Assembly: GCA_963737905.1 (NCBI GenBank)
Contig: CAVTUQ010000009.1
Location: forward strand, 1-64,000
Reading direction: 5' to 3'
DNA length: 64,000 bases
From: an uncultured delta proteobacterium
GTDB taxonomy: Bacteria; Desulfobacterota; Binatia; UBA9968
The notes beneath the pieces were generated by a model. It was not told where the DNA came from and searched no databases. It was given only the letters and a program-made list of their open reading frames with translations. Below are positions 1 to 17,282 of the stretch, in pieces (position 1 is the first letter of the stretch; each line of letters begins with the position of its first letter). Both the position numbers and the translations under genes were made by a program.

Positions 1-207
1 GTCATCGATCCATTTCCTTGCGAATGTCAGGCCTGCCAGCTCAGCTTCTTCTTCGGTTGCAAAGCCGTGCTTAACATCAAACCGCCTAAACTGTTTACGA
101 CGACCATCGGTCCAGTTTATAAGAACCTGAGCGGTCCAACGCTCGCTGTCGGGAAGGAGATGTCTCGGCACGCTCTGGATATGATGTCCCTTGTAATCCT
201 CGTCCAT
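1..207 (-). CDS. Small YKGHxI...EAExxG...KWID family protein, copy 1 (runs off window)
   Basis: Manual translation from ATG 207: MDEDYKGHHIQSVPRHLLPDSERWTAQVLINWTDGRRKQFRRFDVKHGFATEEEAELAGLTFARKWIDD. Not in the ORF track. Confidence 0.8.
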   Translation of the reverse strand, partial: MDEDYKGHHIQSVPRHLLPDSERWTAQVLINWTDGRRKQFRRFDVKHGFATEEEAELAGLTFARKWIDD

Positions 208-209
208 GT

Positions 210-425
210 CAGCCGCCGCGTCGCCGCGCGCCGGGTGATTCGCTTCACGTTGATCGTGTCGGCATCTTTTTCAACCTTTGCAGGGTCATAATCCATCTGC
301 AACCCAAGCCATAGCTTTGGGCTGCTGCCGAACGCCGTCGAAAGCCCTATGGACATCTTCGGGGAGATGCCGGACTTCTCATTCACGAGATTGTGAGGGC
401 CTGCCGGGTTATTCCAAGGCGCGTA
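210..425 (-). pseudogene. higA: HigA-family (XRE HTH) antitoxin fragment, 5'-truncated and frameshifted
   Basis: ALGITRQAL / NLVNEKSGISPKMSIGLSTAFGSSPKLWLGLQMDYD matches the HigA pattern. No start codon and no higB partner. Confidence 0.75.
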
Positions 426-452
426 CTTGGCCCCCGAGCGCTTCGTAAACGC

Positions 453-673
453 TTAGAGATCAAGGCTTCCCTACGTCAATCCATTTTTTTGGAGACAATC
501 AGTCCCGCCTTCTCGGCTCGATCGGGCGTGTCGTAACTAAGCTGCCAGTCGATTTGTTTAATAACCTCTCGCGACTATCCATCGAGTATTGTGCAAATTG
601 GTTTCCACGGAAATGCACTGTTATCCTTTTCTGTTGTGACTCCGATAACGTGCCCTTTGTATTGTTTTTTCAT
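453..673 (-). pseudogene. Small YKGH...KWID family protein, copy 2 (in-frame TAG plus indels)
   Basis: MKKQYKGHVIGVTTEKDNSAFPWKPICTILDG*SREVIKQIDWQLSYDTPDRAEKAGLIVSKK. DNA-level paralogue of 4974-5192. Confidence 0.8.
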
Positions 674-773
674 CAAACAAAGCCATCCCTCGCCCTTCTC
701 TCGTTTCAAATTCTATCGTGATTCGGCATTGAGGTTCTGTCTAAAAGTGAACAATCATAAAAATTATCGAAGC

Positions 774-793
774 GCCGGGTTCACGCTCGGCCC
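774..793. repeat. GCCGGGTTCACGCTCGGCCC palindrome, copy A
   Basis: Identical 20-mer at 3641-3660; followed by a T-run. Confidence 0.8.
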
Positions 794-910
794 GTTTTTT
801 CCCTTAGCTAAAAAGGACCGTTCAATGAATTTCGTACAACTCCAACCCTGTGTGTCTACTTATTCAAACACTGTGAAAGGTTACTCTCTTAAATTTTAAG
901 CGTTCCTGCC

Positions 911-926
911 TGGCACGGCTGTTGCG
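911..926 (+). promoter_or_regulatory. sigma54 -24/-12 promoter
   Basis: TGGCAC-GGCTG-TTGCG, exact GG-N10-GC spacing. Confidence 0.75.
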
Positions 927-937
927 CAATACTGAGA

Positions 938-1066
938 TAGGCTATAGCCGACTCGACCCCACGGCGACTATGCCGGCGGTTGATGCTAGTGCGTCCGGCC
1001 TGGGGTACGGCCAATCTTAAGCCGGGATTCATGAGCTCCTTCCTGGGTATCCCGGCCTATTTTTAT
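938..1066 (+). ncRNA. Candidate sigma54-dependent small RNA
   Basis: No ORF after the promoter. Nested helices GCCG..ACCCCA/TGGGGT..CGGC and GCCGG/CCGGC, then terminator GCCGGGAT/ATCCCGGC plus T-run with a CTCCTTCCT loop. Confidence 0.5.
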
Positions 1067-1119
1067 ATCCCATCTCTAACTTTCATGTCTGTGCCGCTGC
1101 TCAGGTCCACCCGATAGCA

Positions 1120-1305
1120 TCAGTCGGTTCTGTGTTGGTGCAGCTGGAGCAATATCGGTGCAGTTAAACTGGACTCGGAATCCAATTTTCCATGGCCGGT
1201 AACTAACCCGGAGTTTTGGGTGCGGTCAACTGATAGCAGTGAGATCAATACGAAAATAACAAAAAGACTCGCCAGAAGAGCGCCCGTAATATCCTTCATA
1301 AACAC
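1120..1305 (-). CDS. Small single-TM hypothetical protein
   Basis: Hydrophobic N-terminal helix, GGGAG RBS, TTGACA upstream at 1407-1412. Confidence 0.5.
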   Translation of the reverse strand: MFMKDITGALLASLFVIFVLISLLSVDRTQNSGLVTGHGKLDSESSLTAPILLQLHQHRTD

Positions 1306-1434
1306 TCCCTATCTCTCTGTTGGTTACCCAACAAAAGTCATTGGGTCGAAAGTAGGTCGTGCGACGATGCGGGACTCTACAGGTTTTCTATCAACTCACT
1401 TTTCCATGTCAAGAAGGGTGATCATTGGGGGTTC

Positions 1435-1602
1435 TCAATTACAGGGCCGCTTCCTAACTCTCGCAGTACCTTTCGAACTGAGGCGGCCTGGGCGAAAGAT
1501 CGTGCCCTGCGAGTACCAGTCAAATCCTGTTGCAAACGTCGGCACGGCTGAACTATCAATCAGGAATGCTTTGTATCGTTCGAGTCCCCACTTCTTAGCC
1601 AC
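1435..1602 (-). pseudogene. Small YK..I...W..G family protein, copy 3 (C-terminal half lost)
   Basis: GTG start: MAKKWGLERYKAFLIDSSAVPTFATGFDWYSQGTIFRPGRLSS, then unrelated sequence. Aligns by eye with the N-half of copy 4. Confidence 0.55.
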
Positions 1603-1608
1603 CGCAGG

Positions 1609-1637
1609 ATACTACTGAAAGTATTTTCAGGTGTCAA
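1609..1637 (-). promoter_or_regulatory. sigma70 promoter with palindromic spacer; probable leaderless start at GTG 1602
   Basis: TTGACA-17-TAGTAT; the spacer contains CTGAAA-ATAC-TTTCAG. Confidence 0.65.
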
Positions 1638-1651
1638 TCCTACCTGGCAAA

Positions 1652-2032
1652 TCATTGAGCCTGTTTCTGAGTCCTATTCAACGGAATGACTTGTCCGTAC
1701 CGCCCCACGGCTTTGATTGCGGCCCGGCAACGTTGATCCGGGGTGGCCCACTGGGAGGGAATATTTTTGGTGCGAGTAATCTTGAAGAGTTCCCTCAAGT
1801 ACTGATCCAAACGTCCAAGCTGTTTCATCTGTTCTTCTATCGGATACGCATGGACGGGGTTGGTCGAATAGTAGGGGACTTTCGCTAATCGCCAATGCCC
1901 GGCCTTATCCTGCTTTTTGCCGACAAGTGCACCTTCATGCTTGTGAACGTTCTTCCAGCCGAAAACCTTTTCAGCCGTTAGTGCGTCCAGCTTTGGACCA
2001 GACGGGATTTTATCGATGGCCATTTGAGCCAT
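1652..2032 (-). CDS. Phage ABA-sandwich domain (BC1872-like) protein
   Basis: LDALTAEKVFGW...VPYYSTN...ATPDQRCRAAIKAV pattern. Confidence 0.65.
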   Translation of the reverse strand: MAQMAIDKIPSGPKLDALTAEKVFGWKNVHKHEGALVGKKQDKAGHWRLAKVPYYSTNPVHAYPIEEQMKQLGRLDQYLRELFKITRTKNIPSQWATPDQRCRAAIKAVGRYGQVIPLNRTQKQAQ

Positions 2033-2246
2033 AACCTGGAAGCAGCGTCCAGTTGACTTCGTATCCACACTTAGCGCAAAGACCACGTATGGGTTGCACG
2101 TTATTTTCGCTTTTCGGTTCCCCGATCACGACACCGAAGTAATGTCGGCAACTAGGACAGGATCGAGGAAGCTATACAGCCATTCTTTCAATTTAGCTCT
2201 GCCGGTGAAGCCGCTCAATACCAGGTGAGTAGTTGGGCTTGCCTCA

Positions 2247-2351
2247 CTACTGCTTGTTAATCCAGACAACTAAGATGGCAACTGCGATCGCAACAATAAC
2301 TACACCTAGAAATGTATAGTCAAAAAAGTCCGCAACGATCAGTTCAACCAT
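2247..2351 (-). CDS. Tiny membrane peptide
   Basis: MVELIVADFFDYTFLGVVIVAIAVAILVVWINKQ, one TM helix. Confidence 0.45.
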   Translation of the reverse strand: MVELIVADFFDYTFLGVVIVAIAVAILVVWINKQ

Positions 2352-2382
2352 AAGTAGCCCCCAAAACTCGTTTGGTGGAGCG

Positions 2383-2623
2383 TCAAGGCCGCTTATCAAT
2401 CCACTCTTGGCACAATTCGAGTCCGTATTTTTCGGCCTGTTTCTTGGTCTTGAACGTTCGCGCGGTCGATTCAATTCGTTTAATTTCTATTGTCTGATTC
2501 AGGTTGCGATCAAAAACCAGTCCCCGTGAGTACCACCGATTCTCCGGTACCGGAACTGCCACTCCATAAATAGGATGGTCCTTGTGTGTTTCATCGGTCG
2601 TCGTCTTTCCTTTGAAAAGCCAT
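2383..2623 (-). pseudogene. Small HKDHxI...AExxGL...WID family protein, copy 4 (1-nt frameshift near start)
   Basis: MA/FKGKTTTDETHKDHPIYGVAVPVPENRWYSRGLVFDRNLNQTIEIKRIESTARTFKTKKQAEKYGLELCQEWIDKRP*. The extra base is in a T-run. Not in the ORF track. Confidence 0.75.
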
Positions 2624-2655
2624 CAGTATAGCCGTTGGTCGCCCAATTACATGAA

Positions 2656-2877
2656 TCATATCTCTTCGAGCGCCGTGTAGTCATGCACTCCGCTACATTG
2701 CGGAGCGAAGCGGGCCCACTTAAAAACTTTGCCGTCCTTCTTTCGCACGAAACGGTAGGGAATTTCGCCGCGCGTCGCGGGCCTCCCATTCTCGCCGATG
2801 TAGTCAAAGTCATCTCGCAATTCACGCGCTGATATCACATAGATTCGATGCGCCGGCACTTCGATCCATTCAGCCAT
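2656..2877 (-). CDS. Small hypothetical protein
   Basis: GGAGG RBS before ATG 2877; MAEWIEVPAHRIYVISARELRDDFDYIGENG... Confidence 0.6.
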   Translation of the reverse strand: MAEWIEVPAHRIYVISARELRDDFDYIGENGRPATRGEIPYRFVRKKDGKVFKWARFAPQCSGVHDYTALEEI

Positions 2878-3121
2878 GTTCGTTAGACCTCCATTCCGCC
2901 ACCGGCAAACCCCACGACCCGCTCGTAGCGCTTGACGGCGCGCTCCAGGTCTGGTGTCATCGGTTAGTTCCAGTTCCCAAGAGAGAGTCCAGGGCAATAA
3001 GATCAACCATACTATCACAGCTGGAGTAATCTTCCTCCTGAGGCTTTAGGCTGAGAAGAAAGGTCTGATCACTTATGTTAAACCAGGCTGCCTTTGCCAA
3101 TTCACTTGCGATTCTAACCGG

Positions 3122-3196
3122 CGCCACTCACGATCCGGAAATTCCACAGAGATTTACAGATTGGCCCGTCAGCTTGAGAAGATGGAGAAGGAGTAA
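3122..3196 (+). pseudogene. 3' fragment of THD(P/E)E helical micro-protein
   Basis: ATHDPEIPQ/IYRLARQLEKMEKE*, paralogous to 3702-3836. Confidence 0.5.
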
Positions 3197-3228
3197 GGGA
3201 AGGGCTAAGGAAACACACGAATCGGAAG

Positions 3229-3456
3229 TTAACGCCGTACCCTAGGAATTGATGTGCGTTTGCTTACTGAATTTCCCCACCAGCGACAGTTCTTTCGCGC
3301 CCGCTTCTCGATGCATTCAGGGCAGAAGCCATCTATCGGCGGATACTGCGGATTTTTCACTTCCTCGTATGCCACCGCTGGCCAGTGAGAGCAATTCGTG
3401 CAAAAGTGCCAGTGCGTGCTAGCTATTGCTCGGCGGTACCGCGCTTTTATAATCAC
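3229..3456 (-). CDS. Small Cys/His-rich putative zinc-finger protein
   Basis: WHFCTNCSHWP...CPEC...C motif. Confidence 0.65.
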   Translation of the reverse strand: MIIKARYRRAIASTHWHFCTNCSHWPAVAYEEVKNPQYPPIDGFCPECIEKRARKNCRWWGNSVSKRTSIPRVRR

Positions 3457-3635
3457 GCCTAAGACATATCACAATTGACTCCTACCTTCCGTCAGGATCA
3501 CGACACGCGAATCGACGGACATATTGATCCAACCAATCTTGTAAATCGTTGAGTTGAAAGGCATCGTCGGAATTACCTCCGGCTTCCACCAAAATTCCTG
3601 ACCATAATTCCGCCGCGCATCCCGCATGATCCGAT

Positions 3636-3663
3636 AAGGGGCCGGGTTCACGCTCGGCCCCTT
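3636..3663. repeat. AAGGGGCCGGGTTCACGCTCGGCCCCTT palindrome, copy B
   Basis: Hairpin; core identical to 774-793. Confidence 0.8.
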
Positions 3664-3701
3664 GTCATTACCACCGGATGGGAACATACTGCGCCACCCA
3701 C

Positions 3702-3836
3702 ATGACCGCCGAAGAACTCGAAAAACGTATGGATGAATTAGCCCGTGAGTTCGCGAAAACTCATGACGAGGAAGTTAAAGCGGAACTCGAAGCATTGAGA
3801 GGGCGTATTGTCGCAATGAAGAGACGACTGATTTAG
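3702..3836 (+). CDS. 44-aa helical micro-protein (MDELAR..THD family)
   Basis: MTAEELEKRMDELAREFAKTHDEEVKAELEALRGRIVAMKRRLI*; below the ORF-track cutoff. Confidence 0.6.
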   Translation: MTAEELEKRMDELAREFAKTHDEEVKAELEALRGRIVAMKRRLI

Positions 3837-3895
3837 GTCGGCCCTTAGGCACACCCACAAGGTTTTAGTAGCATCCATAAAGGGAGGAAATCGCG

Positions 3896-4279
3896 ATGGA
3901 CGAAACGCGCATTTACTCTGTCGATTCCGAAACGTTCAACAAACTGTCTCACGCGAATGATGAGCTGATCCAATATCTACAATGGCTCATTGAACGAAAG
4001 GACTTGGAAGCGATCAATAAATTCAGCCCAATCGTGAGACGAACGACGGACCTATTTCTAGCCATCCTCGAGGGGGCTTTCCCGGAAATATCTCACGTTA
4101 TTGATGCCTTTAAAAAACTTCGCGACGAAATAACTGAGCAGATTGCCCGGGCCAGTACGCCAGAGGAGATTGAGCAACTCTCTAAGCAGGTCGATGAGCT
4201 AACGAGCGACTACCAGAAGCGCATAAATGAAGTTGTGGCAGAAACAAAGCGCCTGGAAAAACAGAGTCGGAAGCAGTGA
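3896..4279 (+). CDS. Coiled-coil hypothetical protein
   Basis: 127-aa ORF, strong GGGAGG RBS, heptad-like helical sequence. Confidence 0.7.
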   Translation: MDETRIYSVDSETFNKLSHANDELIQYLQWLIERKDLEAINKFSPIVRRTTDLFLAILEGAFPEISHVIDAFKKLRDEITEQIARASTPEEIEQLSKQVDELTSDYQKRINEVVAETKRLEKQSRKQ

Positions 4280-4301
4280 GGGGCCGGTCTGGCCCCCTTT
4301 T
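4279..4301 (+). terminator. AGGGGCCGG-TC-TGGCCCCC hairpin plus T-run (palindrome variant C)
   Basis: Directly at the stop codon of 3896-4279. Confidence 0.65.
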
Positions 4302-4347
4302 GCTTTTTGTTCTCGCCGTCCGATAGAGACGCGCTTAGGGAATTAAC

Positions 4348-4539
4348 ATGCAACTTAAAAGCACTTTAAAATGTCCAAACTGTGGCCATACGGAACAGGT
4401 CATCATGCCATTGGATTACTGCCAGTTTTCCTACGACTGCAAGTCGTGCCACGAAATAATGAAAGCCAAACAGGGGTATTGCTGCGTGTTTTGTTCTTAT
4501 GGTGATGTGCCATGCCCGTCGGTTCAGAAATCATATTAA
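4348..4539 (+). CDS. GDCCVxC-domain metal-binding protein
   Basis: STLKCPNCGH..MP..C...YDCKSC...K.GYCCVFCSYGDVPCPSVQ. Confidence 0.85.
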   Translation: MQLKSTLKCPNCGHTEQVIMPLDYCQFSYDCKSCHEIMKAKQGYCCVFCSYGDVPCPSVQKSY

Positions 4540-4596
4540 TCTATCACCGCTCCCAACTCCGGCGCTCTCTCCGGCAACGGTGCCCCCTGGTTCAAA

Positions 4597-4809
4597 ATGC
4601 TGATTTTCCACTGTAGCGACTGTAAGGAGACGATTAACAGCGCCGATGACGAAAGCGTCAAACAGGTCTTTGACAGGCTCGACGAGCATATAGCGAAATG
4701 CCCGCGGGCGACGTTTACTTTCGAGGGAACGACGGACGTTGCCCGGCAGAGAGTTGACAATTTACGATCAGTCATTAAGCGCCTTGCGGGTAAGTTACGG
4801 CCACACTGA
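4597..4809 (+). CDS. Small C2HC zinc-binding hypothetical protein
   Basis: CSDC...HIAKC motif. Confidence 0.55.
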   Translation: MLIFHCSDCKETINSADDESVKQVFDRLDEHIAKCPRATFTFEGTTDVARQRVDNLRSVIKRLAGKLRPH

Positions 4810-4973
4810 TCATTGGCTTGAGCAAAAGAACTCAACGCAACCTGCTTTGAGTAACTTCCCCCGCTTTAAACTTTTCAACCGATACCTAGCGCTGTTGCCC
4901 CTAGCGGTAAACCTCGCCAGTGATCGGGTTAAGTTTGCTGACGACGAGTTGGCTCCGACCGCTTCGTAAAGGC

Positions 4974-5192
4974 TTAAAGATTAGGCTTCCCTGCGTCAAT
5001 CCATTTTTTCGAGATTAGCAGTCCTACCTTCTCGGCTTGATCAGGCGTGTCGTAACCAATATCCCAGTCCAACTGCTTAATAAGTTCTCTCGAGCGTTGA
5101 TACATTATTCTGCAAATTGGTTTCCACGGATATGCGCCTTTATCCTTTTCTGTTGTGACTCGGATAACGTGCCCTTTGTATTGTTTTTCCAT
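4974..5192 (-). CDS. Small YKGH...KWID family protein, copy 5 (intact)
   Basis: MEKQYKGHVIRVTTEKDKGAYPWKPICRIMYQRSRELIKQLDWDIGYDTPDQAEKVGLLISKKWIDAGKPNL. Confidence 0.8.
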   Translation of the reverse strand: MEKQYKGHVIRVTTEKDKGAYPWKPICRIMYQRSRELIKQLDWDIGYDTPDQAEKVGLLISKKWIDAGKPNL

Positions 5193-5339
5193 TGAAACCT
5201 TTGCCTTCTCTCGTTTCAAATGCGTATCGTGATTCGCCATATGGTTCTGTCTAAAAGTGAACAATCATGAAAATTATCGCGTTTTTTGGGTCTCATCGGG
5301 CTGCGAGCTTGAGAAGATGAGAAGCTAAGGAAAACAGCG

Positions 5340-5370
5340 AGGGGCCGGGCTTCGGTCTGGCTCTGCTTTT
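5340..5370 (+). repeat. AGGGGCCGGGC-TTCG-GTCTGGCTCT palindrome (variant D)
   Basis: Same GGGGCCGG stem with a C(TTCG)G loop and T-run. Confidence 0.65.
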
Positions 5371-5401
5371 CGCTTTGGCCTTGGGATAAGGTAGGACTGC
5401 T

Positions 5402-5641
5402 ATGGCAGAAGCGCACCAGTATCGGGGCCACACTATCAGATTCACAGTACAGCGAAGTCCCGTGACTCTTTACTGGCGCGCAAGAGGAACCATTGAATAC
5501 ACCGAAGGCGGAAGGTTTTGGACTTTCATTATGACTGGAGCAATTGATACCTTCACAATAGAAGCCGAAGCTGAACACGGATTCCTTCAACAAGCGCAAA
5601 AATGGGTCGATGATCGGCTCGGTTCCAAAAGCCCGCTATGA
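5402..5641 (+). CDS. Small YRGH...KWVD family protein, copy 6 (intact)
   Basis: MAEAHQYRGHTIRF...YWRARGTIEY...FTIEAEAEHGFLQQAQKWVDDRL. Confidence 0.8.
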   Translation: MAEAHQYRGHTIRFTVQRSPVTLYWRARGTIEYTEGGRFWTFIMTGAIDTFTIEAEAEHGFLQQAQKWVDDRLGSKSPL

Positions 5642-5850
5642 CCGTCTTTAAAGCCCTCGCCATTCTCGAAGCCGCAGTGTTGGAATGTAAGCAAAGAAAC
5701 GTCAACACGCCGGAAGTGACAGAGAGACTCTAGATTTCCTAGAGCCGCACATCCGGCCCACGTAGTTGATTCCGCCGTACCGACACTCGCTCGATAGGCA
5801 CGGCGACCTCGATTATGATCGCGAGGGTCAACAGCAAGTGCTCCGCAGGC
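5638..5850 (+). pseudogene. Degraded hypothetical gene translationally coupled to copy 6
   Basis: ATGA overlap; MTVFKALAILEAAVLECKQRNVNTPEVTE/LDFLEPHIRPT*... with a frameshift and a stop. Confidence 0.45.
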
Positions 5851-5940
5851 TTGGCATGCCTCAGTTTTTAGGTGAGATATGGCAACGGCCAGATCAGCCC
5901 ATTGGTCAGGTTATGGGTTATCGCTTTGTTGTTATGGGAA

Positions 5941-6042
5941 GGTGACGGGTGACACTAGGTGACGCAGATTTTAGAAAGTCCCTTATAAAGATGATTTATA
6001 GGAAGTTATCAAAAACAGCTGCATCATGTGTCACCGGTCACC
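5941..6042. other. Iteron-type replication origin remnant (P4/satellite-like)
   Basis: Three GGTGAC, an AT-rich core, then two inverted GTCACC. Confidence 0.55.
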
Positions 6043-6242
6043 GGGAGAGCGTTGCTATCTTGGGTTGGCGCTTGGCACTGAGTCGCTTCCCGCAACGACT
6101 TTCTCGTACTCCGCCAGTATGACGCGCTGGATCATGTTTCGCGTTACGGGAGGACGGTAGGCGCAACTTCTCTTGTGGTTTGGTTCGAGTAGAAAACCAA
6201 AGCTCGTAAACAATAGAAACTTCGTAGAGCAGGACCGGTTCT

Positions 6243-6683
6243 TTATCTTTTTTTCTTAGTAGCCGTTGCCTTTCGGATTATCGCAGCGCACTTCATGGCG
6301 TCTGCGTCAGACTCAAATCCAAAAACCGCCGAATATTTTCTCCCTACCACCTGGGCGACGAGAAAATCCATGTTGATCCCCGCACCGGCAATGGCCTGCG
6401 CGGTTGCATAGCCAAGGCCCGCCCTGTTATCGCCCTCGACCAGCAGAGCCGGGATTACTGACGCGCTGAATCCCGCTTCCTTGGCCGCGGTAACGGACTT
6501 CCTCCCCATAACCGGATAAAGCTCAATTGCGGCCTTGGATTCCTGGTGCGGAAAGCGATAGGCCATTACCACATGGATGTCTGTGCCGGCGTTGGCAAGC
6601 GGCGCAAGAGCGTTAGCAAAAATTCCGGTCCTATTCTCAATCTCTTTTCGCCACAGCACAATCTTTTTAACGGTCACTGCCAT
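6243..6683 (-). CDS. Tandem ACT-domain protein
   Basis: Two ENRTG/DNRAGL...A..GIN ACT-like repeats; AAGGAGG RBS. Confidence 0.75.
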   Translation of the reverse strand: MAVTVKKIVLWRKEIENRTGIFANALAPLANAGTDIHVVMAYRFPHQESKAAIELYPVMGRKSVTAAKEAGFSASVIPALLVEGDNRAGLGYATAQAIAGAGINMDFLVAQVVGRKYSAVFGFESDADAMKCAAIIRKATATKKKR

Positions 6684-6852
6684 ATTGGGTGCCTCCTTCT
6701 CGTCTCAAGAATTGCTTCGCGGTTCTTCGTAACGCGATTCTATTGCGGACCGACTACGGCTGCAAGGTGCACATCGAGTTGACGCGTCCCGTAGACTTTA
6801 TTAGAAGGGTGCAGAAATAGCCGTGCTTCAACCTACGCGGGAGGTGATCCGC

Positions 6853-7095
6853 ATGAATCAACGATCATTTTCCTTGCTCACCGGAATCATATTCATCATC
6901 ATCGCCCTATTGCATCTCCTTCGGATCATCTACGGCTGGGATCCAGTTGTCGAAGGCTGGACAGTACCCAAATGGATAAGTTGGATAGCTTTGATCATCT
7001 CCGGATACTTTGGGTATGAAGGGTTGCGTTTAGCTATCAAATCGAGACGGAGTTACCGGGGCTCGAAAAGAAACGCCATTGAACGTGATCGTTAG
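6853..7095 (+). CDS. Small two-TM membrane protein
   Basis: GGAGG RBS; IF..IALLHLLRI..GW...GW.VP.W.SW. Confidence 0.7.
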   Translation: MNQRSFSLLTGIIFIIIALLHLLRIIYGWDPVVEGWTVPKWISWIALIISGYFGYEGLRLAIKSRRSYRGSKRNAIERDR

Positions 7096-7240
7096 TCTGA
7101 TAAACTCTTGATCCAGGCTTGCCGCTTAATGTGGGTCGCGCGTAATTAGAAAGGAATAAGACTGGGATCAGCTCCGCCCGGACACATCGCCGTCCCGCCG
7201 TTCCCCTCATCTCGTCTATTCTTTCTTCTCTCGATTTTGG

Positions 7241-7540
7241 CTACTCTCTGGCGTTGCGCGTCGTCGTCCATACAGCCAGCGCGCCCATGCCGAGGCCGAT
7301 CGCGAAGCCGAGGCCCACTGAGCGTAACGGATCGTGTTTGACGCGATGGGCCGCATCTTCCATCAAGTCTTCAGCGGCATAACGGCTGCGCTTGGCCAAC
7401 CGCTTGGCCTCAGTCACTGTATCTTCGACGGCGTGAGAAGCTGCGGTTTTCAAGCGCGCGGCTTCGCCTCCCACTTCCACCAGCCGCTCTGCAACGTGCA
7501 TGGTTTTCCCGAGCAAGCCGTTTTTCTCGTTCCCTTCCAT
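7241..7540 (-). CDS. DUF883/ElaB-YqjD-like tail-anchored protein
   Basis: Helical body followed by VKHDPLRSVGLGFAIGLGMG; AAGGAGG RBS. Confidence 0.75.
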   Translation of the reverse strand: MEGNEKNGLLGKTMHVAERLVEVGGEAARLKTAASHAVEDTVTEAKRLAKRSRYAAEDLMEDAAHRVKHDPLRSVGLGFAIGLGMGALAVWTTTRNARE

Positions 7541-7622
7541 AATCGATTCCTCCTTTTTTTCATTCAGTTCGGCTGATATAGGACTTTTCTCGTTTTTACG
7601 TTCTCAGCTAATTTTGATGTAT

Positions 7623-7667
7623 AGCCAACCCCGTGCCTAACGAACAATTCCTAAAATCAATTACTTA
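7623..7667 (-). promoter_or_regulatory. sigma54 promoter plus IHF site for the DUF883 gene
   Basis: AGGCAC-GGGGT-TGGCT (7623-7638); AATCAATTACTTA fits WATCAANNNNTTR. Confidence 0.55.
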
Positions 7668-8214
7668 CAACATCTTGCAATAGCAGGTGCCCCTGAAAAG
7701 GTACATAGAAAATCCAAAAGCCGGGATACTCGGCGGATAGGGCTACATGAGCATCCCGGCTTTAAGTTGGCCGACCCCGCGTCATTACGGGATCGAGTCG
7801 GCTAGCCTACCCCGAGAGTCCGCAATGCGCATGCCAGGCACAAACGTTAGAAATTTAAGAGAGCAACCCCTTTCGCAGTGTTTGAATAAGCGGACACCTG
7901 AGAGGGATTTGTTAGAGAAATTCACTCACCGAAATTCCTTCACCGGCTCAGGAGGTGGGGACGCGAAGCCCGTGGGCAAAGTTCAGCCAGTGGTCCAGGG
8001 TTCTGATGATGTGATGGAAGCTGTAATGGGACAAATGAAAGCCTGCGGCATCGAGTTTGAGGTACTGTGTGAAACGGAAATGATTCACTAATCATCCCTT
8101 ACTCCCGTTCAATCGTGGAACAGGCGCGGCAGGGTGCGCAAGAAATTTGCGCGCACTGCTGCGGCCTCTCAGAGATTCACTGACGTTCGGGGATAGTAGT
8201 AACTTCTCTTGTAG

Positions 8215-8246
8215 AGAAAACCCCCCACCCAGCTGTGGGGTTTTCT
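8215..8246. terminator. Bidirectional terminator-like hairpin
   Basis: AGAAAACCCC...GGGGTTTTCT. Confidence 0.55.
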
Positions 8247-8368
8247 TAATCCGAAACAGCCACGACGTAAGCACGATACTGCGAGCGAGTGACGGCGCTT
8301 TTCGATAGCCGGCGCGAGCTTGCGCGGTTGCATCAGAGCCGTCAACGCGCAAAGCGGTGGTTAGACGG

Positions 8369-9953
8369 TCACTCTCGGAAAGGGTCGCTAAGTCTAGGAC
8401 ATATTTTGCGCGACGAATCTTGTCGAGTTCCACCCGTTTCCAGAAGCGAGATCATCTCAAGCTCGCGTCGTCGCTGCTCCCCAGTGTACTGACTAATGTC
8501 GAGCATGTAAGCGTTGTAGAGCTTACCTGGAGCTGATTTCAAGGGCGGTAGTGCTGCGATGCGACGACATGAACGAAACGGAGGTCGATGGAGTACCCTA
8601 AGCAACTGCTTGACTTGGGACAAGCGTCTCGTCGACCAGGAAGCAGTTTACGCTGTTCTCTATGCAGAAATCCTGAATTACCTTAAGAGCACCCTCAAGC
8701 TGAGCCCGCTCTTCCAGAGTGTCTCGCTTCAATTCATCCCGTTTGGCGCTGTCATGCTCCCCAGCGGCGACGTTAACGTCCTCGGCGTTGACCCGTTCAC
8801 CGCGGTACGTCTCGCCGCGCTCACGAGCGATGTCGATGGCTTTGCGAAAGATCGTCAAAAAATCGCGAGCGACCCCACCGCTCGCAAGGACAAGCCTTTC
8901 GATGCCTCCAACAGCGAGCAGCTGATCATGGTCCCGTAAGCCAGCTTCTTGTACTAGTTGATCGAGAATCTGCAGCAAGAATCGCTTGGCGATCTCGTAC
9001 TTCTCCAATGTAATGCTCGCAGGTCAATATCATCACAGTCGTCGCCCAGTTTTAGACCGACGGGCGGGTCTCCATGGTGGTACCAATCAGTGCGATGGCG
9101 AATCGTGCCGACCTTTAGCCAGACCGAGCGGTCTACGATACGATACAATAGTCGAGTACATTCGCCTGATCTTGTCGGGCGATGTGATAAAGATCATCCA
9201 GAAAAATATAGGCATCCGAGCCCGACAGTTCGACGATCTTTTCGAATAGCTTCTGGAAATCGATGATCCGGCGGTGGAGGACGTTGATCTTGTTCCTGCG
9301 AGACGCTTCGTTTGCGCTCTCGTCTCCACGGAGGCAGCACTCTTGTCAGTCACCGAGGTTCCCAGGCCGACCCCTCTCACCGACAGAAGAGCCTTTGGCC
9401 CCGAGACTCTGCTCCGAAGTGACAGTGCCAGCGATGTTGGTCTGGGATGTGAGTTGTGCGTCGTCCTCGGAGTGTAGAAGCTCGGTAAGCACTTTGATCT
9501 GTTGCTGCAGATCACTGCGAACATCGGCAACCTTTTTCTTGTCCAAGGGCGGTCGGTCGGGTATTCCGCCCCAAGATCACCCCAAAACGATGTCTTCGAT
9601 GCAGGATTGATACCCGCGGAATCGAGCCATCGGTCGAAGGCGGCTAGCGTTTCAATTAGCACGCTGAGTAGGACATCAGGGTAGGTATGTCCCTTGAATG
9701 CCTCAGATCGATGAAGGAAGATGAATCCGCTTCAGCGTAAGGTCGGCCCCGCTCCGATGAAAGAGGTCTTTCCCGAGCCACGTCTGCCAAAGACCAAGTG
9801 GTGCCGGCGCGACTTGGCACGATCGAGAGTTCCGCGGGCCGGCTCGATGAACCGACGCGGCGAATCCGATGTAGCACGTGTGGCCTCCTCGACAAGAGTC
9901 ACAAGTTTGTCGACTTCCGGTGAAGTAAGGAGTGGGTTGGGTTTCTCCGTCAC
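8369..9953 (-). pseudogene. Large P-loop NTPase (ORC/CDC6- or STAND-like), multiply frameshifted
   Basis: Walker A GRRGSGKTS, Walker B YIFLDD (about 9190-9210), ASGGVARDFL helix motif; split across at least 6 ORF pieces. Confidence 0.7.
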
Positions 9954-10149
9954 CTATCCTCCCACTGCGGTCATTAGATCAGTGTATTGGTTCCCGTTGC
10001 TAGTTCTCAAACATCAGAAATATCGCCTACCTAGTGAGAACTTGTCAAGTACTTTGATTCATTCTGCACCGCCAATCCGGCCATGTATGAGGATAATCAG
10101 CTAGCAGGCGTGGAGATTTGTTCACTTGTTATATAGGTCAAAGTAGCGC

Positions 10150-10183
10150 TTGACATACTGTGATATACGATGCTATATACAGT
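10150..10183 (+). promoter_or_regulatory. sigma70 promoter with overlapping inverted repeat (likely autoregulatory operator)
   Basis: TTGACA-18-(TGc)TATATA; ACTGTGATATA...TATATACAGT. Confidence 0.6.
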
Positions 10184-10201
10184 CTACACAAAGGAGGCGC
10201 T

Positions 10202-10468
10202 ATGGAACAACAAGAACGTAGCGAAGTGATCATGGTTAGATTGTCGCCGGAGGACAAGAGGCATATTGAGGCGGTGGCTGAGGAGCTTGATATGAAGGTG
10301 AGCGAGTTTGTCAGGGCTGCTACCTTGCTTTATTTGGCCATCACCGTCAATCCGCACGGCCTTAAGATGGTTGCGAAAGGGGCCGCTGCCAGCATACGGG
10401 AAGCGATGGAGAAATTGCGGGAACCGGGGTTAAGAAAAGTTGTTTCGGGGTGGAAAAAGGGTAACTGA
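10202..10468 (+). CDS. Ribbon-helix-helix (MobC/DUF1778-like) regulator
   Basis: RSEVIMVRLSPEDKRHIEAVAEELDMKVSEFVRAA; AAGGAGG RBS. Confidence 0.75.
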   Translation: MEQQERSEVIMVRLSPEDKRHIEAVAEELDMKVSEFVRAATLLYLAITVNPHGLKMVAKGAAASIREAMEKLREPGLRKVVSGWKKGN

Positions 10469-10479
10469 CGGGTGGAGGG

Positions 10480-10768
10480 ATGGTTGTGGCGATGAATGTT
10501 GCGGTCAATGTGTCCCGTATCCGCCAGGCGATGGAAGCCAAACAGCTTAAGGTCGTTGACGCCTGCTGCGGTCTGTGGTGTTAATAATAAGACGCTGGCA
10601 AAGATTCTGCGGGGAGAATTGCCGCGCCGTGTTGATGCCTTTTACCGAGTCTTGAATGGTTTACAAATTCCCTTTCAGGAGGCCGTAATTGCCCCCACAC
10701 ATAAAGCAACGCAAGGATCGCGGCTCTACGTACTACCTGGTAGACGGCGATCTGATCAAATCGCTTAA
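10480..10768 (+). pseudogene. XRE-type HTH protein (possible excisionase/regulator), frameshift at about 10563
   Basis: RIRQAMEAKQLKVVDA/AAVCGVNNKTLAKILRGE; overlaps the integrase start. Confidence 0.6.
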
Positions 10769-11799
10769 GACAAGAAAAAGGGGCTCGCGCAGCATCTGTC
10801 TTGAGCAGTACATCAAGGGGAAGTATGGGCTACAATCCGATGCCTACAGTGAAAGAATATTTATGATCAATGGATCGAAAAGAAGATCGAGCCGCTTGTT
10901 TCGTCGCGCGCTGATTCGGGACTATAAGCAGCATTTCCGAACCCATATCCTGCCCAAATTTTAAGCATATGCGTTTATCGGCTATCGGGACGGGTGAATT
11001 GACGGATTTCAGAGTCCATTTACTGGGCCATGGTCTGAGCGTGAAAAGTGCCAGAAACATCATTGACGGCTCCTTTAGGGCGCTTTTATCGGGATGCAAG
11101 GGCTGAGTTTGACGAATTGAAAGGAAGGGACCCGTTTATCGATCTTCGATGGCAAGCTACACCGAGGGCAAAGCCGGACCCGTTCACGGCGGAAGAGCGG
11201 GACAAGATTGTTGAGCATTGGAAGGCGACCGACTTTTTTTACTTTCCTTGGGTCTTTATCTTGTTCCATACGGGAATGCGACCGTCTGAGGCGTCGGCGC
11301 TTACCTGGGCCGATGTGGATTTGGAGCGTCGGACGATATCAATCAGCAAGTCCAGATACATGGGGACCGAGTCGGCACCTAAAACATCTGGTAGCAAGCG
11401 AACAATTCGATGTCGGGGAGCGAGTGGCGGACGTGTTGAAGATTCTACCGTCGCGGGCGCTTGGGCTTAGCTATGTCTTTGTAAACAAGCTCGGGGAGCC
11501 AATGGATGCGAAGAAGTGGGGTGAGCACAATTGGAGGGCGCCGTTAAAAACTCTCGGGATCAGGCATCGAAAATTTTATGCTACTCGGCACACGTTCATA
11601 ACCGAGGCTATCAAATGCGGTCAAAAACCTGTTGGCGGTGGCTCAATACTGCGGAACGTCGTTGGCGATGATTGAAGCGGACTATTGCGGGGTGTTGGGC
11701 CTGCGGCTCGATCAAACCGTTTTCGAACCGCAAGCCTATAACCCCTTGAAAGATTTGGTTGCGGGGCCGGGATTTGAACCCGGGACCTCAAGGTTATGA
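10689..11799 (+). pseudogene. int: Tyrosine integrase, several frameshifts; C-terminus overlaps the tRNA antisense
   Basis: HTGMRPSE, PKT, YATRHTF, catalytic Tyr in MIEADY; last frame ends ..LVAGPGFEPGTSRL* at 11797-11799. Confidence 0.85.
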
Positions 11800-11832
11800 G
11801 CCTTGCGAGCTACCAGACTGCTCCACCCCGCG
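11756..11832 (-). tRNA. tRNA-fMet (CAT), CCA encoded
   Basis: CGCGGGGTGGAGCAGTCTGGTAGCTCGCAAGGCTCATAACCTTGAGGTCCCGGGTTCAAATCCCGGCCCCGCAACCA; C1:A72 mismatch; TTGACT-17-TACAAA promoter upstream. Confidence 0.97.
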
Positions 11833-11893
11833 GCAAGAGTTTGAATCTTTTTTGTACCTTGCGCTTTGCCAGGAGTCAAGGTAGGGAAGACCG

Positions 11894-12319
11894 ATGAGTA
11901 AGAATCATCGTAACCCTTTACCCACGGTTGATATCATTATCGAGCTTGCCGCAGGCGGGGTGGTGCTCATCGAGAGAAAAAATATTCCCCATGGCTGGGC
12001 TCTGCCCGGAGGTTTTGTCGATTATGGAGAAAGTTTAGAAGCCGCTGCCGTTCGTGAAGCCAAAGAGGAGACCTCCCTTGAGGTTCAACTGATCGAGCAG
12101 TTTTACACTTACTCGGATCCAAGTCGAGACCCGCGACACCACACGATATCCACGGTCTATATCGCCATAGCGCAGGGAATCCCCCAAGGAGCGGACGACG
12201 CCAAGACAGCAAAAATCTTCCTAGAGAATCAGCTTCCAAACCCCATTGTTTTTGACCACCCGCGAATCTTGAGCGACTATTTTGTTTATAAGGCGACGGG
12301 TCGGCGTCCGAAGCCCTGA
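11894..12319 (+). CDS. NUDIX hydrolase
   Basis: Nudix box [24 protein letters not shown]. Confidence 0.95.
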
Positions 12320-12344
12320 TCCGGGCGTGAATATCCAGCTTTAT

Positions 12345-13542
12345 TTATTGTAGCTTGCCGACGGCTGCGGCGATCCGCTTGCAGCCCTTTTCTATGTCTT
12401 CGAGAGCCGTGGCGTAGGAGAATCGGATATGCTCCTTGGAACCAAAGTCCTCGCCTGGGACGACAGCGACTTTAGCTTCTTCGAGGAGGTAATCGGCAAG
12501 GTCGCAGGGAGAAGCCAATTTTTTGCCGTCGGCCGTTCGACCCAACAAAGCACTGACGTTTGGAAAAACGTAGAATGCCCCTTGGGGTTTGAAACAGCGC
12601 ACGCCTTCGATCGCGTTGAGTCTATCGACAATGACATCGCGACGCCTATGAAACTCCTGGACCATCGGCATGACGTCAGTCTTGCGGCCCCTTGATAGCC
12701 TCTAACGCCGCTGCTTGAGCAATCGAAGTCGCGTTTGATGTGCTTTGACTCTGAATCTTGGCGGCGGCGGAAATGATATCGGCCGGGCCTATTGCATAAC
12801 CGATGCGCCAACCCGTCATTGCGTAAGTTTTTGAAACGCCGTTGACGATAACTGTGCGGTCACGCAACCCCGGGCTCAGAGCGACGATATTATGCACCTG
12901 GAAGTTGTCATAGACGATCTTCTCATAGATGTCGTCGGCGATAGCCAAGCAGCTATGCTGCTCGAGAACACGGGCAATAGCCCGGAGCTCATCGGCGGCA
13001 TAACTGGCACCGGTGGGGTTACAGGGGCTGTTGAGGACGAAGACTTTCGTTTGAGGCGTCAGCTCGGCCCTGAGCTGTTCGGCAGTGATACGAAAACCGG
13101 TCGACTCGTTGGTTTGAATGATTTTTGGGACGCCCCCCGCCAGCAGCGCCATATCCGAGTAGCTCACCCAGTAGGGTGCCGGAATGAGGATCTCATCTCC
13201 GGGATTGATGACTGCTTGAAAGAGGTTATAGAGGGAATGTTTTGCCCCGCAGCTGACCAAAACATCTTCTTTCCGATACGCCAATCCATATTCTTGCTCA
13301 TATTTGCGAACGATGGCTGCGCGCAATGGCTCGATACCCTTCACGTCCGTGTACTTCGTCATGCCTTTGCGCAGAGCCTCCACTGCCGCTGCTTTGATGT
13401 GCTCCGGGGTGTCAAAATCGGGCTCACCGGCAGAGAAATTAACCACATCAATTCCCTCCGACCGGAGTTTGCCTGCTTTGGCCGCGATGGCAAGAGTCAC
13501 CGAGGGCTTAATCAGTTTGGTTCTTTCCGCAAGCTTTGTCAT
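12345..13542 (-). CDS. aspC: Aspartate aminotransferase (class I PLP); 1-nt frameshift at about 12677
   Basis: AGEPDF, NSPCNPTG, DDIY, SKTYAMTGWRIG; the C-terminal part is in ORF 12345-12671. Confidence 0.9.
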
Positions 13543-15849: not shown

Positions 15850-16224
15850 TTACGCGGAAAATGAAGTGCCGCAACCGCAAGTTCCGCTCGCGTTGGGATT
15901 GGTGAATTTGAAGCCACCGCCATAAAGACTCACTACGTAGTCGATGGTCGTACCCTTGAGATGCGCCACGCTCTTGGGATCTACGTAGACCTTGAGGTTG
16001 TCCAGTTCCAACACAAGGTCGCCGGGCTCCTCATTCTTTGCGAAATCCAACTTATAGGAGAAACCCGAACAGCCCCCGTCTGCCACCGACACCCGTAACC
16101 CATCGTCTTTGCGGTTGCCGCGAGCCAGGAGAGCTTTGACTTGTTGAATGGCCTTCTCGGTCAATGTCAAATTGAGGGCTTCCGTTTCGACCGCTTGGTG
16201 GTTCTGTTCGCTAGTCATGAACAA
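15850..16224 (-). CDS. A-type Fe-S cluster carrier (IscA/ErpA/HesB)
   Basis: GGCSGFSY, NPNA, CGCGTSF. Confidence 0.95.
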   Translation of the reverse strand: MFMTSEQNHQAVETEALNLTLTEKAIQQVKALLARGNRKDDGLRVSVADGGCSGFSYKLDFAKNEEPGDLVLELDNLKVYVDPKSVAHLKGTTIDYVVSLYGGGFKFTNPNASGTCGCGTSFSA

Positions 16225-16290
16225 TTCTCACACTACCCACAAGGTAATGCGGGCGTCCAGCCAAGTCAAGGGAACAGGCAAACGACTGCG

Positions 16291-17217
16291 TTACTTCTCG
16301 AAGAGGGCCTGGACGAATTGGGGGGCGTCGAACGGTTGAAGGTCCTCCACTTCTTCTCCGACGCCGACGTACCTGACGGGAACGCCCAGCTCTTCTTGAA
16401 TGCTCACGATGACGCCACCCTTCGCTGTGCCGTCGAGTTTGGTCAGTACAATACCGCTAATATCCGTCGCTTCTTTGAAAACACGGGCTTGCTGGAGACC
16501 GTTCTGCCCCGTCGTTGCATCCAGCACCAGAAGGGTTTCATGGGGCGCGTCCGGTTGTTCTCGGGAAATAACCCGCCGGATCTTTTTCAATTCCTCGATT
16601 AGATGGACTTTCGTATGAAGTCGTCCCGCGGTGTCGATGAGCAGGACATCGATACCACGACTCTTGGCTGCTTGCATGCCGTCATAAACCACTGCGGAGG
16701 GATCGGCGCCGGCCCGATGTTTGACCACGTCGACACCGACCCGTTGTGCCCACGCCTCGAGTTGCTCGATGGCGGCCGCGCGAAAGGTGTCCGCGGCCAC
16801 CAGGAGGACTTTCTTTCCGGCTGATCGATATTGGGCGGCGAGCTTGGCGATCGTCGTCGTCTTCCCGACGCCGTTCACGCCCAAAAAAATGATCACCCAG
16901 GGGCGGACCGAAAGCGGAAGCGTTTTCGGAGGCGTTGTCGATGTCTGAAGCAGCTCCACCATCGCCCGTTGTAAGCGCAAAGACATTTCCTCCGCGAGAT
17001 CCTCCGCCCCGCCCGGCGATTGCCCCCTTAAGAGGTCCATCAATTTGTGGGTCGCCTTGGGGCCCAGGTCCGCCGCGATCAGATTCTCCTCCATGGCGTC
17101 CAGCGATTCCTCGTCCCAGCGCTGGTTTTGGAAAATGGTGCCGAGTTTTTGCGCCCAGTTCTCCCGGCTCTTGGTCAGGCCGCTTTTCAGCCGTTGAAAA
17201 AACGAACTACCTTCCAT
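16291..17217 (-). CDS. ftsY: Signal recognition particle receptor
   Basis: GVNGVGKTTT, DTFRAAA, DTAGR, TKLDGTAKGG. Confidence 0.97.
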   Translation of the reverse strand: MEGSSFFQRLKSGLTKSRENWAQKLGTIFQNQRWDEESLDAMEENLIAADLGPKATHKLMDLLRGQSPGGAEDLAEEMSLRLQRAMVELLQTSTTPPKTLPLSVRPWVIIFLGVNGVGKTTTIAKLAAQYRSAGKKVLLVAADTFRAAAIEQLEAWAQRVGVDVVKHRAGADPSAVVYDGMQAAKSRGIDVLLIDTAGRLHTKVHLIEELKKIRRVISREQPDAPHETLLVLDATTGQNGLQQARVFKEATDISGIVLTKLDGTAKGGVIVSIQEELGVPVRYVGVGEEVEDLQPFDAPQFVQALFEK

Positions 17218-17282
17218 TTAACTAGTGTGACAAATTTTTGGGTCGTGGGCGATGGGGTGGGACAGCGGTCGCTCGGAAAGAG

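Follow-up and report, generated by a model that had tools for sequence, protein, structure and literature searches.

What are six small, divergent open reading frames (ORFs) doing within the first 5.6 kb of a bacterial contig, and what might the proteins that they encode contribute to the cell? The question is raised by positions 1 to 5641 of a 64,000-nucleotide stretch of DNA (hereafter the window) from an uncultured delta proteobacterium (GenBank assembly GCA_963737905.1, contig CAVTUQ010000009.1). The window is the first 64 kb of this contig, here called C9, in a genome bin of 6.7 Mb and 46 contigs that is 87.5% complete and 6.7% contaminated. A preliminary description, made from the sequence alone, took the six ORFs for paralogues of one protein family and for a diversifying arsenal of a mobile element. 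We tentatively favor an account that we rate a little short of probable, in which the array consists of deeply diverged paralogues carrying the CV_2116 domain, accumulated in a decaying island at a tRNA-Met gene, and in which this domain is an accessory module of two-component signaling. Two of the copies are intact (c5 and c6), one is whole up to the contig edge (c1), and three are broken:

c1, 1-207, minus strand: whole CV_2116-like domain, its ORF cut by the contig start.
c2, 460-673, minus strand: pseudogene, starting with an ATG at 673, interrupted by a TAG in frame (575-577) and frameshifted near 480-489.
c3, 1435-1602, minus strand: apparent N-terminal half-remnant of a very divergent member.
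c4, 2383-2594, minus strand: full domain, the sole nearby ATG (2594) being out of frame.
c5, 4974-5192, minus strand: intact, 72 residues.
c6, 5402-5641, plus strand: intact, 79 residues.

All six ORFs are present where the preliminary description had placed them or close by. A family hidden Markov model (HMM) was built from c1, c4, c5, and c6 and iterated to convergence against every six-frame ORF in the genome. It detects 19 ORF pieces (E ≤ 1e-3) across the 6.7 Mb, and five of these (c1, c2, c4, c5, and c6) lie within 1-5641, where an even spread predicts ~0.016 pieces. Their E-values range from 1.7e-7 to 2.5e-25 (2.8e-20 for c1, 1.5e-20 for c4, and 2.5e-25 for c6), and membership in one family thus holds for these five, but c3 is only a half-remnant that the HMM misses (best 1.7 bits). 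The assignment of c3 depends on the ORF C22:120096-120338, to which it is identical at 17 of 34 residues (50%). That ORF is a divergent full-length member that aligns end to end with the HMM and with c4, and c3 is read as the remnant of a very divergent relative of this kind. In c2, the closing KKWID motif ends at 460 and lies in a different frame from the rest of the gene because of the frameshift near 480-489; its intact twin is found at C22:123266-123475 (DNA identity 88%). The c4 reading frame has no ATG, GTG, or TTG ahead of strand 1, and c4 is probably a pseudogene; intact c4 orthologues begin MSRYKGHPIYG.

The domain is ~68 residues long, and its conserved columns (Y3, I8, W21, I/V27, F47, T49, A53, E54, W64, I/V65, D66, and R/H68) include the two motifs that had been noticed by eye; the picture of a conserved scaffold with variable middles is likewise borne out. 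The only NCBIfam family matched is the CV_2116 domain (NF046097, cut-off 58 bits). The cut-off is reached by c1 alone (62.8 bits, residues 4-68), while c5 (18.1 bits), c6 (19.8 bits), and c4 (17.1 bits) still give alignments that span most or all of the model. In a wider scan of 146 sequences (c6 plus 145 representatives of clusters at 50% identity), NF046097 is matched by 116 at E ≤ 1e-3 (best 8.9e-19) and no other NCBIfam family is matched. DUF6566 (PF20204) is matched weakly, at full length, by 8 of 51 family members and 14 of the 146 sequences; its gathering score of 26.7 bits is not reached by c1 (20.2 bits), and the other five copies give no match. PF10115 (HlyU) matches none of the six copies and only 1 of the 51 members (E ≤ 1e-2) and 3 of the 146 sequences (E ≤ 1e-3), although a neighboring cluster in a protein atlas carries both DUF6566 and PF10115. 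These sequence comparisons identify the family as the CV_2116 domain, with DUF6566 as a distant relative. The earlier assignment by eye was therefore correct for CV_2116, but PF10115 is no more than a faint relative. Neither DUF6566 nor PF10115 is known to have a tested function.

Structure prediction followed by a fold search had been proposed at the outset as a check. An AlphaFold2 model of c6, based on an alignment of 51 sequences, has a pLDDT of 90.1 and consists of four strands (3-7, 10-18, 25-35, and 38-45) and a C-terminal helix (54-75). The best solved match is CV_2116 itself (PDB 2KON). Searching the PDB by sequence (phmmer with c1, and the family profile) gave no relevant chain, and 2KON surfaced in fold searches only. 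The structure of CV_2116 has been available since 2009. The sole paper on this Chromobacterium violaceum protein describes a monomer by NMR, encoded within the tail region of a P2-like prophage; no function was found, and a role in phage tail assembly was guessed from the prophage neighbors (PMC3397530). Full-text literature searches on the names CV_2116, DUF6566, and PF10115 yielded nothing further on the family. The proteins discussed here resemble CV_2116 in size, in being stand-alone single domains, and, going by the c6 model, apparently in combining N-terminal antiparallel strands with a long C-terminal helix. In contrast to the single prophage gene of C. violaceum, however, they occur in ~20 copies per genome, mostly chromosomal and often beside receiver or kinase genes, and nothing in the present data backs a role in tail assembly. 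These proteins make up a new branch, strongly expanded, of a domain already known but functionally uncharacterized.

How widely is this branch distributed? The profile has 730 matches in a protein collection clustered at 90% identity, of which every named one is a "hypothetical protein", and 1365 representatives in a collection clustered at 50% (E ≤ 1e-3). The nearest named record is a metagenome-assembled genome (MAG) labeled "Deltaproteobacteria bacterium", and near-identical DNA is found in soil and freshwater metagenomes. In the bacterial family f1, 22 of 24 genomes have 2-21 matches (20 of 22 without the unpublished genomes G006 and G012), compared with 4 of 5 genomes in f2, each with 1-2 matches, and 0 of 11 in f3. 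An even sample of 300 other genomes from across the phylum yielded only 2 with a match (E ≤ 1e-6), with at most 19 candidates scored per genome. The family is therefore a lineage-specific expansion in one deltaproteobacterial-type bacterial family of soil and freshwater.

Within this expansion, the window copies are not local tandem duplicates, because c1, c4, c5, and c6 are only 22-37% identical to one another, because in the family tree the window copies coalesce only at a node that includes all 82 tips, and because their nearest relatives lie at other loci or in other genomes. The exception to this deep divergence is the pair c2-c5 (81% DNA identity over 337 bp, flanks included), though c2 is nearer to the intact copy on C22. 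Further clusters with a GC content of 0.50 are located at C22:120-125.5 kb (four copies, 5.5 kb from an IS21 element) and C20:0.4-13.4 kb (three copies, adjoining TIR-domain and AAA_21 genes). Contig C15 carries a c6-like fragment beside integrase remnants and a tRNA-Arg gene, and the remaining copies are singletons.

The array itself lies between the contig start and a tRNA-Met gene, together with the following features:

tRNA-Met gene, 11756-11832, minus strand: island boundary, its 3′ end facing the array.
Integrase remnant, 11048-11675, plus strand: two overlapping frames, including the fragment 11048-11470.
Broken gene after c6, 5638-5945, plus strand: a 31-residue ORF followed by a 59-residue ORF, with DNA matches to contigs C32 and C2.
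ORF of 144 residues, 1652-2086, minus strand: directly upstream of c3, with paralogues upstream of family members on C28 and C20.

The integrase remnant matches Phage_integrase (E 7e-6) over profile positions 28-59 of 172 only and has weak XerA/XerC matches. The 22 nucleotides at the 3′ end of the tRNA-Met gene (11756-11777) have an exact repeat at C38:137134-137155, a site without a tRNA gene, and the GC content is 0.512 at 1-11700 vs. 0.545 for the genome. Housekeeping genes (NUDIX, aminotransferase, CoaD-like, RsmD-like, FtsY, and SMC) begin at 11.9 kb. The tRNA gene at the border, the adjacent degraded integrase, the 22-nucleotide repeat, and the deviant GC content together identify a tRNA-linked island, in keeping with the preliminary description, which had spoken of an island with intact, frameshifted, and truncated copies. 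Decay of the island is evident from the broken state of c2, c3, c4, the gene that follows c6 (paralogous to an intact gene of ~125 residues on C32), and the integrase. Past the repeat on C38 there are 4.6 kb with a GC content of 0.50 up to the contig end, including a receiver gene and a BON-domain gene. The two contig ends do not overlap, and their orientation is consistent with the end of C38 and the start of C9 belonging to a single island that measures 16 kb or more. A contig from DNA run X1 extends 561 bases past the window start. A sister species carries other cargo at this tRNA-Met/NUDIX site, where a family member is again present, 1.2 kb away from the tRNA gene.

What, then, might the domain do? 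When all ORFs located up to 2 kb from 88 members (71 loci) were clustered, receiver domains emerged as the dominant neighbor family (20 loci). For 9 of the 88 members, a canonical single-domain receiver gene is located on the same strand no more than 800 bp upstream, where random placement would give 0.41 (P = 0.0046 per site in this genome). These nine members come from six genomes and several subfamilies, and their receivers range from close to very distant relatives. Adjacent receiver-member pairs include C2:7541-7912 with C2:8070-8285 in this genome and the pairs at loci L061, L070, L079, and L082. In addition, a receiver (REC) or histidine kinase (HK) ORF, as detected with our own REC and HK HMMs, is located within 2.5 kb at 22 of the 71 loci vs. 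8.0% of random sites. The nominal p-values for this neighbor enrichment are overstated, because the loci are related to one another. A second link is provided by four protein clusters (76 member sequences) in which the domain is N-terminal to a PAS-HisKA-HATPase_c kinase. The fused domain is 79% identical to c5, many of the fusions are 450-479 residues long and are found on separate JGI and ENA metagenome contigs, and stand-alone forms of 76-77 residues share a 90% cluster with the kinase fusions. Collectively, the lineage expansion, the enrichment of receiver and kinase neighbors, and the fusion to a PAS histidine kinase provide the first testable functional lead for the CV_2116 domain. If the link is real, a widespread layer of small proteins would be added to two-component regulation; if it is not, what remains at the locus is a dead island with an unremarkable array of paralogues of a functionally uncharacterized domain.

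The mechanism that we consider most likely can be outlined as follows. Each member is a cytoplasmic protein of ~68 residues with four β strands packed on a long C-terminal helix, and would serve as a protein-binding accessory or input module of two-component signaling. The hydrophobic scaffold formed by Y3, I8, W21, F47, and W64 would present a variable sheet surface, and this sheet might dock on a receiver domain or a histidine kinase and thereby tune phosphotransfer, by analogy with small "connector" proteins. Core copies are held in conserved synteny under strong purifying selection, and a fringe of copies in low-GC variable regions evolves fast, duplicates, and decays. Known connectors and anti-adaptors such as PmrD, IraP/IraD/IraM, and TorI are small, often horizontally acquired proteins that bind a receiver domain or a kinase, and TorI is carried on prophages or islands. 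The likeness is one of proposed mode of action, i.e., a functional analogy only, with the added parallel to TorI that some members of the present family reside on prophages or islands. Among the top 50 matches of either fold search, PmrD, IraP/IraD/IraM, and TorI are absent as sequence or structural matches.

Several observations weigh against a role in two-component signaling. The tight receiver arrangement is seen in only ~10% of members, and 49 of the 71 loci have no two-component gene within 2.5 kb. Neither a receiver nor a kinase gene is present at 1-11.7 kb of the window, the nearest being C38:140182-140589 at what is presumed to be the other end of the island. The kinase fusion represents one evolutionary event, and the domain is found in none of the 80 best related kinase loci of reference genomes. 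Moreover, the loci are paralogues and orthologues and do not count as independent samples, the background rate was obtained from a single genome with narrow home-made HMMs, and the 6.7% contamination of the bin means that copy counts beyond the window contig may be inflated.

A more far-reaching version of the signaling account would make CV_2116 domains a hitherto unrecognized class of small partner or input modules of two-component systems, expanded in one bacterial lineage to ~20 variants per genome, with islands serving as a birth-and-death "connector" repertoire that rewires phospho-signaling. Each variant would have its own binding surface, and variable islands like the present one would be where new ones are tested and dropped. 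We regard this version as doubtful.

It is unlikely that, regardless of what role the core family plays, the window array has no present function and is a dead-island graveyard for duplicates that came along as hitch-hikers. Three of the six copies are broken, as are the gene after c6 and the integrase, and the c6 orthologue in a related MAG contig is likewise frameshifted. On the other hand, c5 and c6 are intact and have purine-rich stretches 9-18 nucleotides ahead of their ATG codons that are plausible ribosome-binding sites. The exact c5 protein is found in a 61-member cluster, and the same or nearly the same protein recurs on many contigs. RNA-library contigs (three libraries, Logan) span parts of c1, c5, and c6, one of them covering 4708-5166; transcription of these copies is suggested only weakly, because such libraries can hold DNA and the strand is not shown.

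Improbable, in our estimate, is a function as small nucleic-acid-binding regulators in which a dsRBD-, HPF-, or AP2/Arm-like sheet-plus-helix binds RNA, ribosomes, or DNA. Such a function would fit the label "HlyU transcriptional activator" of PF10115 and the weak Pfam matches to AP2 (E 0.0011) and Arm-DNA-bind_4 (E 0.0034 and 0.013; 2 of 146 representatives), but the latter has only 1 match in 41 genomes, too few for a profile-profile comparison. All 120 homologues listed are single-domain proteins, and 62 of them have basic C-terminal tails of at least 40 residues (median isoelectric point 11.7). The isoelectric point of the domain itself, however, ranges from 4.5 to 11.5 (of 82 domains, 25 are acidic, 16 neutral, and 41 basic), and a conserved basic surface is thus lacking. 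Stress-protein neighbors (BON, CsbD, Usp, OsmC, CBS, and ElaB-like) at several loci might also suit a regulator of this kind, whereas the structural scores for such folds all remain in the band of common arrangements and the family profile matches no solved nucleic-acid binder by sequence.

The preliminary description had pictured a diversifying arsenal of anti-defense, immunity, or decoy proteins on a mobile element, carried by phages or islands and engaged in an arms race. The setting lends itself to this idea: the array is in a tRNA-linked island among pseudogenes, two other clusters are in low-GC (0.50) regions near IS21 or TIR-domain/AAA_21 genes, the C15 fragment is beside integrase remnants and tRNA-Arg, and CV_2116 is itself prophage-encoded (PMC3397530). 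The selection data speak otherwise. The ratio of nonsynonymous to synonymous substitution rates (dN/dS, ω), calculated by the Nei-Gojobori method over 68 aligned codons, is 0.06-0.19 for syntenic orthologues and 0.4-0.7 for island or receiver-linked paralogues. The relaxed ω of the island paralogues would fit an arsenal, but no pair has ω > 1 at unsaturated dS, and an arms race is not evident. Instead, the low orthologue ω and the relaxed island ω point to a functional conserved core and a relaxed, decaying fringe.

Neither did searches of mobile DNA favor an arsenal. PHROGs and PADLOC each matched 0 of 11 members, tblastn with c1 gave no match among 50,697 phage records and 72,556 plasmid records, and the virome search (IMG/VR) returned nothing for c5 and two scraps for c1, of 10 and 19 residues. 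Clustering near integrases, expected of an arsenal, is seen for the window array and the C15 fragment. Overall, however, a Pfam transposase or integrase lies within 2.5 kb at 2 of 51 annotated loci (L022 and L023), and an integrase, transposase, or phage gene at 0 of 46 loci, a subset of the annotated loci; 19 of the 71 loci (L071-L089) were screened with our own REC and HK HMMs only. Most copies in related genomes reside among ordinary chromosomal genes, and the recurrent neighbors are two-component signaling genes instead. The tRNA-Met site of the sister species indicates that variable regions need not hold hallmark genes. For this genome it is thus plausible that members are enriched in flexible DNA; carriage by phages or plasmids is not plausible. 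Taken together, these data make an arsenal very improbable.

Two further candidates were considered and rejected. A toxin-antitoxin pair would call for a conserved small partner, and the clustering of neighbors at the 71 loci gave none save the receiver and a second family, here called protein "X". An integron cassette array was suggested by the integrase remnant, which is oriented divergently to the mostly minus-strand small ORFs; it was ruled out, as a crude motif scan for attC sites, imperfect palindromes of the form RYYYAAC ... GTTRRRY, gave 0 candidates in 1-11800 and there is no recurrent inverted-repeat family.

Protein "X" is the second most frequent neighbor family (10 loci). It is a helical protein of ~140 residues encoded upstream of receiver and CV_2116-like genes (L020:7278-7709, L021:10533-10967, and eight other loci), with the motif LMLAVLE..AVE.FQ.YVLA ... 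FSFE.IC..L.L.PDYIR.GL..WK. There are 12 ORF matches in genome G000, none of them in the window, and no match in Pfam, NCBIfam, PHROG, or PADLOC. The 144-residue ORF upstream of c3 (1652-2086) also has no Pfam or NCBIfam family and is 65% identical over 105 residues to C28:227901-228563. In two distant genomes, a CarD-family gene is directly upstream of a family member (L040 in G027, 4317-4904; L055 in G001, 4261-4794), and a sigma-70-type gene is also near L040. The C20 cluster (L021, G000:C20) has two proteins with TIR and FGE-sulfatase (SUMF1-like) domains at 8209-9457 and 18566-19717 and an AAA_21/AAA_15 ATPase at 16140-17849, and this variable region looks like a defense-type neighborhood.

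The island holds other small elements. At 5936-6045 there is an element of ~100 bp with inverted GGTGAC/GTCACC-type ends and copies (84-90%) on C22, C20, C38, C13, C12, and C14; a search of 1-12500 against Rfam gave no match. The element might represent a repeat of the MITE type or a regulatory site common to these copies. A 63-residue GDCCVxC domain (seleno)protein is encoded at 4348-4539 on the plus strand (NF041374, 91.8 bits; cut-off 40). An ElaB/DUF883-like gene (7241-7540, minus strand), a gene for a 127-residue coiled-coil protein (3896-4279, plus strand), and a gene for a 70-residue CxxC protein (4597-4809, plus strand) have DNA paralogues of 76-82% identity, with copies on C32 and C38, and the island as a whole resembles a patchwork of small genes that have been duplicated. 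Finally, RNA-library contigs from another sample connect position 769 with 3202, and likewise 4283 with 4955. At each joint, 59 unrelated letters stand between the two sides, and the breakpoints are at GC-rich hairpins (774-796, 3641-3663, and 4271-4296). Entire gene modules seem to vary between related strains or between paralogous loci.

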